From Candidatus Woesearchaeota archaeon (lineage in GTDB: Archaea; Nanobdellota; Nanobdellia; Woesearchaeales; GW2011-AR9), in NCBI GenBank assembly GCA_016185725.1, contig JACPNA010000057.1, positions 1-47,841 of the forward strand: DNA of 47,841 nt. The letters run 5' to 3'. Under the pieces are notes generated by a model that had not been told where the DNA came from, did no database searches, and saw only the letters and a list, made by a program, of their open reading frames with translations. A program made the translations under genes and the position numbers. Position 1 is the stretch's first letter; each line of letters starts with the position of its first letter. Of the stretch, positions 4,775-44,301 are shown in pieces.

Positions 4775-6151
4775 ATGGCTCTTAAATTATACAACGACCT
4801 AACCCGTAAACTCCAGCTCTTCAAACCCTTAAATTCTCCCCACGTAACTATATACGTTTGCGGTCCGACTATTTACGATTATGCCCATCTTGGTCACGGT
4901 CGTTCTTTGGTTGCTTTCGATCTTCTTCATCGTTATTTGCAATATAAATCCTTTCAAGTAAATTATGTGTTCAATTACACGGATATTGAAGACAAGATGA
5001 TTAACCGTGCTAATAAAGAACACATTACCGTAAAACAATTAGCCGACAGATTCACACAAATATATCATGAAGATTATCAAAAATTAAACTATCTCCCCCC
5101 CACTCATAATCCTAAAGCCACCGGACATATTCCTGAAATGATTAACCTCATTAAAACATTAGAAAAAAAAGGTTTCACCTACCTTATAGAAAATGATGGC
5201 CTTTATTTCAACGTTAAAAAATTCAAGAAATATGGCCAATTGTCGCAGCAAGATTTGCACGAACTTAAAGCCGGTGCAAGAGTTGACATAAAAGACAAAC
5301 ACAGTCCTAACGATTTTGTATTATGGAAACTGGAGAAACCAAATGAACCTAGCTGGCAATCACCTTGGGGTCAAGGCCGTCCCGGCTGGCACATTGAATG
5401 TTCTGCCATGTCTATGAAATATTTAGGCAAGACCATTGATATCCATGGCGGCGGTCAAGACTTAATCTTTCCTCATCACGAAGACGAAATTGCTCAGTCT
5501 GAAGCCGCTAACGGCAAGCTCTTCGCCAAATACTGGTTGCATAACGGTTTTGTTACTATCAACGGCGAAAAAATGTCTAAATCCCTTAACAATTTTTACA
5601 CTTTAAGAGATATTTTTAAAGAATATGACCCCCTAGCCGTGCGCTATCTTTTCCTTTCCACCCATTATCGCATGCCTATCAATTTCACTCTTAATTCTCT
5701 GCAAAGTGCAGCAAAGTCATTAGACAAAATTCAGAACGCTTACTTTTCTATCCTAAATCAAAAATCTTCCGTAAAATTCGGCAAAAAAACTCTCCCTCTT
5801 AAAAGATATTATAAACAACTCGAAAAAGCCTTAGACGATGACTTGAACATCTCTTCTGCCTTAGCTGTTGTTTTTGGCTTAATCAACCAATATTATAAAT
5901 ATCAATCAAAATTAAGCCCTGAATCAGTATTACAACTAGAAAAATTCTTCCAAGACACTGATAAAATCTTCGGCATCTTAAAACACTCTCGAGAAATCAT
6001 CCCTATAGAAATAGTTCAATTGGCCGAAGTTCGTCTAGAATCCAGAAAAAATAAACAATGGTCAGAATCTGATCAGCTCCGCGATAAAATAAAATCCTTG
6101 GGCTACGAGATTGCTGATACTAAAGAAGGCTATGAACTAAAAAAGTTATAA
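4775..6151 (+). CDS. cysS: Cysteine--tRNA ligase
   Basis: YVCGPT, HLGH, GRPGWHIECSAM, DIHGGGQDLIFPHHEDE, KMSKS. Confidence 0.97.
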   Translation: MALKLYNDLTRKLQLFKPLNSPHVTIYVCGPTIYDYAHLGHGRSLVAFDLLHRYLQYKSFQVNYVFNYTDIEDKMINRANKEHITVKQLADRFTQIYHEDYQKLNYLPPTHNPKATGHIPEMINLIKTLEKKGFTYLIENDGLYFNVKKFKKYGQLSQQDLHELKAGARVDIKDKHSPNDFVLWKLEKPNEPSWQSPWGQGRPGWHIECSAMSMKYLGKTIDIHGGGQDLIFPHHEDEIAQSEAANGKLFAKYWLHNGFVTINGEKMSKSLNNFYTLRDIFKEYDPLAVRYLFLSTHYRMPINFTLNSLQSAAKSLDKIQNAYFSILNQKSSVKFGKKTLPLKRYYKQLEKALDDDLNISSALAVVFGLINQYYKYQSKLSPESVLQLEKFFQDTDKIFGILKHSREIIPIEIVQLAEVRLESRKNKQWSESDQLRDKIKSLGYEIADTKEGYELKKL

Positions 6152-22511: not shown

Positions 22512-22849
22512 ATTTTCACCAACAATTCCAACAACATTAATAGTTTAAATACCTTACTACATCCTAACCTATACATTCTACCGCCATAATTTTAAATAAA
22601 TAAAACATCCTTTTGTCAATCTGCCCATTCATAAATATTTTCTTTTTATTTTCTTATTCCTCTTCTCTTTCCTCTTTCTGGTAACTTTCTTAATCCAAAC
22701 TATACCCTCATCAATCTAAGTTTTGATGCCATAACCACTACTAATATTCTCACTATTTTCTCCTTTAGCCGCATTCCTCTCACGTTTTATTACATGTCAA
22801 AATATCAAACCACAATATTATTCTCAATAACACCAATCCAAAACTAAAA

Positions 22850-22993
22850 TATGCTTTTTCCACCAGTGTGTTTCACTGGTGGTACACATCCACTAACACT
22901 TAAAGTGGAAAAAGCATGGTCAGAAAACCGACCCGAGCCCGCAGGCGAGCATGCCACCAGTCTATTGACTGGTGGTGATCAGTTTTCTTTGAC
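22850..22993 (+). mobile_element. Structured non-autonomous element, copy 1 (144 bp)
   Basis: Differs from copies 3 and 5 at 4 positions each; preceded by TAAAA, ends TTGAC; hairpins CCACCAGTG/CACTGGTGG and CCACCAGTC/GACTGGTGG. Confidence 0.9.
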
Positions 22994-25476: not shown

Positions 25477-26283
25477 TTACTTCTCTTTAATTTTATTATT
25501 CTTAACATCATTCACAATTTTTTCTGTAATTTCTATAACTATACCAAAATTTATTACTCTATTTTCTATCCAGCCTCCACCATACATCCCGCCAGCAATA
25601 AAAAGTAGGTTATACCTCCCAAATCCAACAATTTTCAAATATTGTTCAAAAGATGTATCAAAAATAGAGTAATAAAAAAAAAGACCTAAATATGCTGCAG
25701 CAATTCCGAATAAATCAAACATAGTTGCAAATCCCCTGCACAAAGAAAGGTTACCCTTTTCTTCTTTTGATGAGATAAGTGACCCCCTTCCTAATACATA
25801 CCCAACTGTGAACAATCCTCCTGTTACAATTACCCCAAAAATAGGAACTAAATTTGAAATAATTCTAGTTGTAATAGTAAAATATGAGTTTTCCACCAGT
25901 GGTTGCTCGCAAGCAACTCCGGAACAAAGTGACCGGGTATAGTTCCGCTGGTGGCGTAGCCACAACAATCTTCACTTCGATTAGAAAACTCATGGTTGGA
26001 AAACCACCTCGAGCGAAGCGAGCATGCATGAAATTTGAAAACTATCAAATTTCAGCACTGAAAACAAATATTTTTTTGTTTTCATGTGCCACTAGTGTTG
26101 AGCCCGTAGGCGATCACAAGAAATGTGAGGAACATCACATTTCTGTGCTGAAATGAAATCGATGTTTCATTTCATGCACCAGTGGTGGGCGGTTTTCCTT
26201 GACAATAGAAACAATCCTGCCGAGAACACTATCCCAATAAATCCAAACAATATTGCCCATACCCAGCATTTTATTTTATTCAT
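25477..26283 (-). pseudogene. Membrane protein gene split by element copy 2 (161 aa when rejoined)
   Basis: GGTGA SD plus ATG 26283 gives MNKIKCWVWAILFGFIGIVFSAGLFL; the same frame resumes at 25882 (FTITTRIISNLVPIFGV...) to the stop at 25477. Confidence 0.8.
25883..26203 (+). mobile_element. Structured non-autonomous element, copy 2 (321 bp, two nested 60-bp modules)
   Basis: TAAAA|TATGAGTTTTCC...GAAAACTCATG, then GGAAAACC...GGTTTTCCTTGAC; same two-domain architecture as the 144-bp copies. Confidence 0.88.
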
Positions 26284-29560: not shown

Positions 29561-30634
29561 ATGACAATTTTAGTAAAAAAAATGCTGCCCAATAAGTTTA
29601 TAGGTCAAATTAAGGAATATCGATATTCTTCAGAAAAAGAGATTAAACTAGACCTCATTGATAGGAAAATTCTTTATCTCATTGAAATTAACGCACGATT
29701 TTCTCCTACTGCTATAAGTAAAATACTTTTAATTTCTCGCGAAACAATTTCCTATCGCATTAAAAAAATGGAAGAGTTGAATCTTCTTCACGGCTATGTA
29801 ACTTTATTCGATCATAAAAAACTTGGGTTTAATAATTACCGTATTTACTTAAAATTTAAAAATATCTTTAACGATAAAGAAATTATTGAGGAGCTCTTTA
29901 AATTATCAGAAATTACTACAATTGTTACCTGTTCTGGAAGTTATGATTTACAATTTGTCATCAGCGTAAAGACTCAAGATGAATTTCTTAAAACATTCGA
30001 TTCTATAATCGGCAAATATTCTCAGAGTATTGAAAGATTTAAAGTTCTTGAAATTTTCCAAGAAGGAATTGTCAGCAGGTGGATGATTCTTTGCGAAGAT
30101 GAAGCAAAAAAGATAAGAGTCATTAAAGAACATAAAGGTTCTACTTTTCAGAAAGAATTTCATCGAGCTTCCTCATATTCTACGCCTATATCTCTTGATG
30201 AAAAAGACCGAAAAATTTTAGAAATCTTAAAACTAGATGCTAAAGCCAGCATTAGTGCTCTTTCTAATAAACTTTCCTTATCTCCACTTAGTATTGAAAA
30301 TCGCATTAAAAAAATGATTTTAGCTGGTATTATCAAATCCTTTTTCCCACAATCTTCTCTAACTCAATTAGGTTATCAATGGTGGCATGTCTTACTTAAA
30401 ATGAAAAATCTTGATGAAAAAAAATTCTTCACGTTTATTGAACATCACCCCAATACCTCTTGGTATATGAAATTTTTAGGGGAATGGGATTACCAATGTA
30501 GTATCTATGCTAAAACCAATGCAGATTTTCATGATATTCTCGAACAAATTAGACATGAATTTGCAGATAATATTATGTATTATGATTCATTTATCATGTT
30601 CAATCAGTTAAAATACAGCCAAAGGGTTCTATGA
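29561..30634 (+). CDS. Tandem Lrp/AsnC family transcriptional regulator
   Basis: Two units (LDLIDRKIL..NAR and LDEKDRKIL..DAK), each an HTH followed by a RAM-like domain. Confidence 0.9.
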   Translation: MTILVKKMLPNKFIGQIKEYRYSSEKEIKLDLIDRKILYLIEINARFSPTAISKILLISRETISYRIKKMEELNLLHGYVTLFDHKKLGFNNYRIYLKFKNIFNDKEIIEELFKLSEITTIVTCSGSYDLQFVISVKTQDEFLKTFDSIIGKYSQSIERFKVLEIFQEGIVSRWMILCEDEAKKIRVIKEHKGSTFQKEFHRASSYSTPISLDEKDRKILEILKLDAKASISALSNKLSLSPLSIENRIKKMILAGIIKSFFPQSSLTQLGYQWWHVLLKMKNLDEKKFFTFIEHHPNTSWYMKFLGEWDYQCSIYAKTNADFHDILEQIRHEFADNIMYYDSFIMFNQLKYSQRVL

Positions 30635-38905: not shown

Positions 38906-39014
38906 ATTATCACCTTGTTTTATTTTAAAAATAATCACTATTAACCAGTTTTATTAAGATTATGAAACCAAAACTAACAATATATTAACTTAGCACCTTT
39001 TTCTAACACTAAAA

Positions 39015-39158
39015 TATGCTTTTTCCACCAGTGTGTTTCACTGGTGGCACACATCCACTAACACATAAAGTGGAAAAAGCATGGTCAGAAAACCGACCCG
39101 AGCCCGCAGGCGAGCATGCCACCAGTCTATTGACTGGTGGTGGTCGGTTTTCTTTGAC
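39015..39158 (+). mobile_element. Structured non-autonomous element, copy 3 (144 bp)
   Basis: Near-identical to copies 1 and 5; TAAAA|TATG...TTGAC. Confidence 0.9.
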
Positions 39159-40489: not shown

Positions 40490-40722
40490 TAGTAACTGAT
40501 ACTATTTTTGTACATGGCGCCTGCTGAACCCCTCGAGTTAAGCCCGCAGGCGAAACTTGACGGATGAAAGCAGGAGTAGAGCGCTGTGTAGGATAAAAGA
40601 ACAGCAACGTGCTCAGACAACGCCAATGCACTATTCGGCTTAGCTTCCCCACACGTGACGCCACGAGTTAAGCCCGCAGGCAAAACTCGTGGTAGTTCAC
40701 GTCTTACTTATATCAGTTACTA
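40490..40722 (+). mobile_element. IS200/IS605-like miniature element (about 40520-40700) inside a 12-bp inverted repeat
   Basis: LE-like CCTGCTGAACCC..hairpin..GATGAAAGCAGG; RE-like GCCACGAGTT..AACTCGTGGTAGTTCAC; outer IR TAGTAACTGATA/TATCAGTTACTA. Confidence 0.75.
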
Positions 40723-41549: not shown

Positions 41550-41732
41550 ATGTCTTCAGCCCATATCTACAAATGCTCTTCTTGTCAACATTACACCCTG
41601 GAAAAAACCTGTTTCCAATGCCGTCTTGGAACAATTTTACCAAAACCACCCAAATATTCTCCCGAAGACAAATATGGATCTTACCGTAGAAATATTAAAA
41701 AATTGGAATTAAATCAAAAAGGATTATATTAA
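41550..41732 (+). CDS. nop10: Nop10 (H/ACA RNP protein)
   Basis: KC..C..YTL...C..C, PPKYSPEDKYGSYRR. Confidence 0.93.
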   Translation: MSSAHIYKCSSCQHYTLEKTCFQCRLGTILPKPPKYSPEDKYGSYRRNIKKLELNQKGLY

Positions 41733-41734
41733 AA

Positions 41735-41956
41735 TATGAGTTTTCCAATCTAGATGTGACTAGATGCGACTACGCCACCAGTTAAACTATACACCGGCGG
41801 AAAACTCATGACCAGAAAACCGCTCCGAGCGAAGCGAGCATGCATGAAATTTGAAAATTATCAAATTTCAACACTGAAAGCAAATAGTTTTTTGTTTTCA
41901 TGTGCCACTGTGTTGAGCCCGCAGGCAATCACTCTTGGTGGGCGGTTTTCTTTGAC
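41735..41956 (+). mobile_element. Structured non-autonomous element, copy 4 (222 bp, one nested module, inverted left interior)
   Basis: TAAAA (overlapping the nop10 stop)|TATGAGTTTTCC...GGAAAACTCATG, GAAAACCGC...GCGGTTTTCTTTGAC. Confidence 0.88.
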
Positions 41957-44063: not shown

Positions 44064-44157
44064 AATTTTTTTAATTGTTTAGTCTACTTTACTGTATACT
44101 TATAAAAAAATTATTATTCTTATTTATAAAAAGCCATATAACTTGTTAAAACTAAAA

Positions 44158-44301
44158 TATGCTTTTTCCACCAGTGTGTTTCACTGGTGGTACACATCCA
44201 CTAACACTTAAAGTGGAAAAAGCATGGTCAGAAAACCGACCAGAACCCGCAGGCGAGCATGCCACCAGTCTATTGACTGGTGGTGGTCGGTTTTCTTTGA
44301 C
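44158..44301 (+). mobile_element. Structured non-autonomous element, copy 5 (144 bp)
   Basis: Near-identical to copies 1 and 3; TAAAA|TATG...TTGAC. Confidence 0.9.

Follow-up and report, generated by a model that had tools for sequence, protein, structure and literature searches.

Double-hairpin DNA modules of 56-62 nt (exactly 60 nt in 83 of 104 distinct modules) have entered many different sites within one archaeal family, the centers of other modules included. The dinucleotides on either side of a module obey a simple rule, namely that they are identical and that each is the reverse complement of the dinucleotide at the module's center, a relationship kept in full by 164 of the 200 modules analyzed. 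We consider it very likely that the module is a discrete unit that is gained and lost independently.

The modules were studied in the window, i.e., the whole 47,841-nt stretch of DNA analyzed here, in its source genome (G000; 1.03 Mb in 62 contigs, 35% G+C, 97% complete) and in genomes of the same family and order. The genes of the window, among them those for a proteasome-activating nucleotidase, an RFC-like clamp loader, an XPD/Rad3 helicase and archaeal-type tRNA ligases, together with the assembly figures point to a small-genome archaeon, which we infer to be DPANN-like; the public runs that contain this stretch are groundwater metagenomes from two studies. All genomes used are metagenome assemblies, in which repeat-rich regions may be mis-joined.

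Results

Anatomy of the module

The first module of the window, M1, occupies positions 26027-26086 of the plus strand and can be read directly from the sequence as a terminal CA (26027-28), a hairpin with a 10-bp stem and a 6-nt loop (26029-26054), the 4-nt center G-CA-C (26055-26058) between both hairpins, a second hairpin of 26 nt (26059-26084) and a terminal TG (26085-86), both terminal dinucleotides being part of the module. It is preceded by a TG at 26025-26026, the reverse complement of the central CA, and followed by another at 26087-26088, a place where empty copies have a single TG. The second module, M2 (26117-26176, minus strand), is built on the M1 scaffold; on the plus strand it has one CA on either side (26115-16 and 26177-78) and a G-TG-C center (26145-48), and its stems are unrelated to those of M1 yet fully complementary to each other. 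A second copy of M1, lying in another copy of the host element (41843-41902, plus strand, flanked TG/TG), has one stem mismatch and a 4-nt center that starts with A rather than G. The source genome holds five further M1 copies, all at the equivalent host site, and a third module, M3, of 56 nt, which shares the common scaffold and the TG/TG flanks and occupies a third site of the subfamily B host.

A first-pass annotation, made without database searches, had already placed 60-bp modules at exactly these three positions of the window and had described M2 as inverted, flanked by CA/CA, absent from the second M1-bearing host copy and built on different but still complementary stems, all of which held. 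The TG that it reported as duplicated around M1 in both host copies is confirmed as a repeated dinucleotide, but its status as a true duplication is in doubt, since the two dinucleotides could instead be a target motif and a motif encoded by the element.

Each half of a module is a 29-nt unit composed of CA, W, GAAA, five variable bases, a polar 6-nt loop, the complement of the five bases, TTTC, W and G, so laid out in the genome that NN is followed by the first unit, the reverse complement of NN, the inverted second unit and NN again. The ends are conserved as CA in 96 and as TG in 94 of the 104 distinct modules, and the basal stem W-GAAA / TTTC-W is conserved as well; the module has two hairpins with 10-bp stems, each of them 2 nt from a module end. 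The five distal stem positions are, conversely, variable, with 51 different 5-nt arm words, and their complementarity is nevertheless sustained: on average 4.85 of the 5 positions pair (208 hairpins, 104 distinct modules), as compared with a mean of 2.31 and a maximum of 2.48 over 200 shuffles of the partner arms. Perfect 10-bp stems occur in 241 of 303 distinct hairpins, and the stem mismatches show no excess of G/T (10 of 74), which speaks against a structure acting at the RNA level.

The loops, too, have a polarity. Among 80 distinct modules with a GCAC center, first-hairpin loops are A/C-rich (AAACTA 21 times) and second-hairpin loops are of the reverse-complement type (TCGTTG 19 times), with no crossed type in any of the 80 first or the 80 second hairpins. 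Since the halves are inverted down to the polarity of their loops, the module amounts to one 29-nt unit present twice, in inverted orientation, on either side of a dinucleotide. All 104 distinct modules were recovered as such doublets, and single units are rare in the source genome. The scaffold (hairpin, G, NN, C, hairpin) shows directly that both the center and the joined ends form a palindrome with a dinucleotide in its middle. One variant in the source genome (C60:3072-3133) has a second hairpin without the GAAA base and still retains CA/CA flanks and a G-TG-C center, so that the strict scaffold pattern undercounts the module family.

The host element

The modules of the window sit inside a larger repeat, of which five copies, all on the plus strand, were delimited. 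Copy 2 (25878-26203, 326 nt, subfamily B) carries M1, M2 and an extra insert and has an empty M3 site; copy 4 (41730-41956, 227 nt) has M1 as its only module, and its first large stem-loop has an inverted loop. The three short copies, at 22845-22993 (subfamily A, M1-equivalent site empty), 39010-39158 and 44153-44301 (both empty), measure 149 nt by the boundaries used here, a correction to the 144 bp of the first-pass annotation, to which the extra insert of copy 2 is an addition. The extra insert of 35-37 nt (25901-25937, plus strand) is located in that copy's first small hairpin, within the loop, and is distinct in kind from the modules, having no relation to their double-hairpin scaffold; copies of subfamily C, 201-209 nt long, contain a similar segment, and a contig joint from a public run skips 25900-25938, i.e., omits this insert.

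The host element folds into two large stem-loops and has sharp, asymmetric ends (TAAAAT ... TTGAC) that do not form inverted repeats, and it is not flanked by a duplication. The 1.03 Mb of the source genome contain 117 end matches, which resolve to 46 complete elements of 56-326 nt, two mis-paired neighbors and 23 unpaired ends. The 70 nt of its right end align with sequence just downstream of a Y1 (HUH) gene on contig C5, and sequences resembling its left end are found ahead of the Y1 genes of C5 and C52. The host element is best read, by inference from its sequence, as a non-autonomous derivative of an IS200-like element.

Several further observations concern these hairpin-rich regions. Inverted loops affect the whole loop of the first large stem-loop in copy 4 (41747-41800) and, relative to other copies, inner loops at C53:~6060-6095 and C24:13174-13322 of the source genome, possibly reflecting recombination across inverted repeats. 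A further element rich in hairpins (family D5), which contains a repeated motif of 30 nt, lies at 40500-40700 and resembles sequence downstream of a degraded Y1 gene on C22. On C37 (~80-152), a stretch that looks tRNA-like by eye stops a few bases short of a host copy's left end.

Filled and empty sites

Filled and empty pairs, which the first-pass annotation had suggested seeking, are found among nearly identical host copies of the source genome, in every combination of filled and empty. The sites of M3, M1 and M2 are all empty at C2:10367-10532 and all filled on C24; M3 and M1 are present without M2 on C37, C40 and C58, M1 and M2 without M3 on C3 and in window copy 2, M3 alone on C53, M1 alone in window copy 4, and M2 alone, in a copy with an internal deletion, on C44. 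Every one of the empty sites retains one dinucleotide and no footprint. Over 97 shared backbone positions, the C2 copy shows merely 2 differences from C37, 3 from C53 and 5 from C24, as against 20 of 95 from C3 and 11-12 of 96 from C40 and C58, and all of these last three carry M1. Because M1 is thus shared by distant and close backbones, it predates the divergence of these host copies, and the simplest and likely reading is that C2 and C53 lost M1 exactly, leaving one dinucleotide behind; the same argument of ancestry and exact loss likely applies to M2. Both losses are inferred from paralogous copies in a metagenome assembly and are not observations at a single locus. The doubly empty, C2-type form is bridged by contigs assembled independently from a public run; the evidence from public runs consists of Logan contigs only, which break inside the repeat and have joints drawn from paralogous copies, and it was used solely for the existence of contigs bridging the empty form.

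A rule linking center and flanks

The relationship between center and flanks was first seen in GCAC modules, flanked by TG/TG in 88 of 102 cases, and in GTAC modules, flanked by TA/TA in 22 of 28. In the full set of 200 modules, the exceptions comprise 17 that match on one side only, 17 with equal flanks and a mismatched center, and 2 that match on neither side; in those inspected of the 17 equal-flank modules, the center is one substitution away from the matching state. When centers are pooled with their complements into six dinucleotide classes, the rule is kept by 88 of 100 modules with a CA center (expected flank TG), 26 of 35 with AA (TT), 21 of 27 with TA (TA), 22 of 22 with AG (CT), 4 of 4 with CG (CG) and 3 of 7 with GA (TC).

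When each flank context is counted once, 95 of 113 obey the rule; over 5000 permutations of the centers, the mean was 32 and the maximum 47. The flanks of rare centers were retrieved blind, although the retrieved set was hand-chosen (57 new regions of roughly 97 listed rows), and related genomes are not independent in these statistics. Folded as circular DNA, M1 with one TG reaches -15.8 kcal/mol versus +1.7 (sd 1.8) for shuffles, and in circular folds the center pairs with the flank in all 173 rule-keeping modules. One and the same stem pair can occur with different center and flanks, as in locus L164 (center TT, flanks AA) and locus L192 (center AG, flanks CT).

Distribution and dispersal

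A scaffold pattern with a G-Y-A-C center matched 60 of the 114 genomes of the family, in 30 of 58 genera, with 14 matches in the source genome; the reversed pattern, used as a control, had no match in the 114 family genomes or in 301 genomes sampled across the order. Allowing G-N-Y-C centers added matches in 33 of the 114 genomes, four of which had none before. In the even sample of the order, the forward pattern matched only 3 of 301 genomes, namely the source genome, its family member G125 and a single genome from a different family, so that outside the family 1 of 296 genomes of the order has a match. This sole outside match (G206:C1:108909-108958) is a 50-nt double hairpin with a G-TG-C center and shorter stems. 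A simpler count of hairpins built on the base word GAAA was not discriminating (89 hairpins, versus 12-101 for other 4-mers) and was therefore replaced by the scaffold pattern and its reversed control.

The 200 modules fall into about 113 flank contexts. The homologous host site in other genera (L002, L046) holds modules with different stems, and some modules are inserted precisely at the central dinucleotide of another module (L024/L079, L061/L066 and on C28 of the source genome). Same-stem modules within one genome, conversely, mostly share their flanks, indicating that copy number rises mainly by hitch-hiking. A same-stem module on C62 and C28 was considered as a case of dispersal to new sites and rejected, since the flanks are homologous and both copies thus belong to a second host family. 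We regard it as likely, again by inference from paralogous copies, that the module multiplied in the source genome as a passenger of its IS200-like host and was later lost exactly from some copies.

The first-pass annotation had proposed an independent tiny mobile unit that enters hairpin elements, a claim that would fail if modules occurred only at fixed positions in all family members. They do not: a fully empty host copy exists at C2:10367-10532, copies outside the first host were found in the source genome on C62, C28, C32, C29, C56 and C60, and the search of relatives gave the wide distribution described above. The proposal is thus supported, with two modifications besides the doubt about the duplication, one concerning spread, because within the source genome each module type occupies one host site and multiplication was mostly as a passenger followed by exact loss, and the other concerning the enzyme, because the HUH genes whose co-occurrence it had proposed to check are present, while no transposase could be tied to the modules.

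An objection to be raised at this point is that the modules are not mobile on their own and are instead protein-binding or RNA-hairpin domains of larger repeats, changed by recombination or slippage. It can be argued in its favor that each module type of the source genome sits at one site of one host family, that same-stem copies within a genome mostly share flanks, and that the frequent inversion of host loops shows recombination across inverted repeats. Against it stand the roughly 113 unrelated flank contexts, the different-stem modules at a homologous host site, a center-flank rule that spans six dinucleotide classes and the modules nested within modules; an RNA role finds no support either in Rfam, which returned no match at the gathering threshold for the whole window, or in the stem mismatches, which lack a G/T excess. 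We therefore judge this explanation very unlikely.

Search for the enzyme

The sole multi-copy transposase family found in the source genome is Y1_Tnp, with 6 matches and 2 truncated copies at contig ends, and no module-like hairpins were found beside the 6 genes or beside 12 Y1 genes of relatives. Of the 60 module-bearing genomes, 31 have a Y1_Tnp match and 29 have none, and among the 54 module-free genomes 12 have one; with an odds ratio of about 3.7 the association is only weak, and it was computed across genomes that are themselves related. Genome G084, with a main contig of 1.47 Mb, has modules and no Y1_Tnp match, and the C4-type Y1 of the source genome occurs in only 10 of the 114 family genomes. 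On C4 (6375-7730; L011, L013) two Y1 genes, 75% identical, stand in tandem; relatives that are 69-77% identical were found in several more genera of the family, a distribution that may reflect recent horizontal spread.

Other candidates fared no better. The source genome, 97% complete, has no match to DDE_3, Resolvase or the TnpB zinc ribbon, and DDE_Tnp_1 is represented by just 3 degraded fragments. An all-against-all search of its 1552 reading frames gave at least 25 paralogous groups; representatives of ten of the larger ones, considered as a source of the enzyme, were set aside as ordinary paralogues by Pfam (wHTH regulators, glycosyltransferases, radical SAM and others). As an observation in its own right, this genome of 1 Mb carries families of 9 and 8 winged-helix (AsnC/TrmB-type) paralogues, e.g., at C11:3602-4633, C11:1681-2484 and, in the window, 29561-30634. 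The enzyme that moves the modules has thus not been identified, and a Y1/HUH transposase is at present no more than the leading candidate among possible ones.

These results bear on a second alternative, according to which the module is a classical MITE moved by a DDE transposase with a 2-bp staggered cut (Tc1/IS630), its 29-nt halves being terminal inverted repeats and its flanks a target-site duplication. The flanks are indeed equal in 103 of 113 contexts and in six dinucleotide classes, the termini read CA...TG, the halves are inverted including loop polarity, and one subtype shares its TA flanks with IS630-type elements. However, TA flanks account for just 13 of those 103 contexts, DDE_3 is absent from the nearly complete source genome and DDE_Tnp_1 is present only as degraded remnants. 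This alternative also leaves unexplained both the reverse complementarity of center and flanks and the sustained complementarity of the variable stem positions, and empty sites keep a single dinucleotide without a footprint. A DDE-type MITE is, in our view, unlikely.

Discussion

A DNA-guide model

The best-fitting known system is, by inference, that of the IS200/IS605 elements, whose TnpA transposases move DNA by 'peel-and-paste', the HUH TnpA binding sub-terminal hairpins (PMC10055086); the adjacent motif (TAM) and the encoded motif (TEM) are there read by internal DNA guides with which they covary, and excision is scarless (PMC10055086). It is, to our mind, a fairly balanced question whether the module is a minimal non-autonomous single-strand element that uses an HUH-type DNA-guide mechanism of the same kind, a reading that we prefer to its rivals and that is inferred by analogy. 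According to this model, the module would move as single-stranded DNA with an HUH TnpA-like enzyme acting in trans, and its central dinucleotide would be one shared Watson-Crick DNA guide for both ends, pairing both with the target, which is the dinucleotide that precedes the left end, and with the right-end dinucleotide, the latter being the element's own last two bases. Excision would be scarless, and the module plus one flank dinucleotide would, as a circle, fold into a rod of two hairpins joined by guide pairing, with four base pairs between the hairpins and one bulged base at either end of these pairs.

The guide model would explain why the stems must pair, why the flanks follow the center and why loss is exact. 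Against it, the halves are inverted and not direct, no Y1 gene with such ends was found and 29 of the 60 module-bearing genomes show no Y1 match; moreover, equal flanks of many dinucleotides also fit a true 2-bp target duplication, and exact loss could also arise by replication slippage across the hairpins. A bolder version, against which the balance tips slightly, would have the modules be the smallest self-specifying mobile DNA elements so far described from archaea, with a 2-nt guide setting the dinucleotide of entry and exit, a rod-like single-stranded circle and a family-specific enzyme that is possibly no known transposase; if the 2-nt guide does dictate the dinucleotide, one central point mutation would retarget the element.

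A third alternative invokes a new mechanism or enzyme, in either of two forms: two 29-nt hairpin units joined to both 3' ends of a staggered break, with the center made from the target, or a family-specific structure-specific nuclease or recombinase acting on the palindromic sites at the center and the joined ends. In its favor are the stem pair found with different center and flank pairs at L164 and L192, the palindromic nature of both the center and the joined ends, the confinement of the modules to one family (1 of 296 genomes elsewhere in the order) and the failure to tie any known transposase to them. There is, however, no direct evidence and no candidate gene, and the centers of L164 and L192 differ by one base, so that mutation of the guide explains them equally well; this alternative, too, we consider unlikely.

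Relation to known elements

The nearest known kinds are PATE-like derivatives of IS200/IS605, REPINs and cyanobacterial SDRs, and it is possible that the mechanism is new; we found no prior description of 60-nt inverted hairpin doublets with a flank-complementary center in the limited literature searched. With PATE-like IS200/IS605 elements the module shares the sub-terminal hairpins at both ends, flanks that covary with an internal dinucleotide as TAM and TEM do with the guide (the geometry differs from that of IS608), scarless excision (for the module inferred from paralogous copies and not from one locus) and, both being only inferred for the module, a single-stranded circular intermediate and mobilization in trans. 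It differs in that canonical ends are not inverted repeats and their hairpins are direct on one strand, whereas the module halves are inverted, and in that a canonical guide lies 5' of each hairpin, whereas the module's single 2-nt center would have to serve both ends. A single guide for both ends would make the adjacent motif the same as the terminal one, so that the pair resembles a duplication; canonical elements produce no target duplication, and the equal flanks of the module are compatible with either reading. No autonomous partner with module ends was found, although the host element shares its right end with the C5 Y1 unit. Typical PATEs are ten or more times larger than the module.

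REPINs likewise are non-autonomous elements in which an inverted doublet of short palindromic units is the replicating unit, associated with the HUH-class RAYT Y1 enzyme (PMC3116915). Unlike them, the module has hairpins with unrelated stems, so that the doublet forms no single long hairpin, and no RAYT-like single-copy gene flanked by module units was found among the Y1 genes of the source genome and its relatives; furthermore, neither the flanking-dinucleotide rule nor nesting is described in the bearing sections of PMC3116915, and the module's host is archaeal. The SDRs of Nostocaceae are reported to be hairpin repeats of 21-27 nt with compensatory stem changes (Elhai et al. 2008, Genome Res 18:1484), which reportedly occur inside mini-transposons, are nested within themselves and are confined to one lineage; these cyanobacterial repeats are also reported to be single hairpins and have been proposed to move through RNA. 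The module, in contrast, is a 60-nt inverted doublet of an archaeal family with a center complementary to its flanks. Bacterial MITEs of the Tc1/IS630 type with a TA duplication, e.g., Correia and RUP elements, resemble the module in their small size, inverted ends, 2-bp flanking repeat and, in one module subtype, TA flanks; they differ in that module flanks fall into at least six dinucleotide classes that track the module's own center, module ends are hairpins with covarying stems, and the source genome has no DDE_3 gene.

Implications

These elements have practical consequences, since they break assemblies and create spurious reading frames, an example being the 90-aa open frame at 25884-26156, which crosses the host element and both modules of copy 2 and is almost certainly no gene; conversely, they may be of use as strain markers. 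If the center does guide insertion and excision, the module would constitute a near-minimal natural system of DNA-guided single-strand transposition, consisting of two hairpins and a 2-nt guide only, small enough to be assayed on substrates of oligonucleotide size and to be given a new target by a single base change.

For the biology of the family, a high density of MITEs has been noted in a Woesearchaeal genome (PMC11602168), and the present findings illustrate that archaeal genomes of roughly 1 Mb, which are usually deemed streamlined, carry layered mobile DNA in the form of modules nested within host elements, of which the source genome has about 70 ends, these elements being gained and exactly lost on short timescales.
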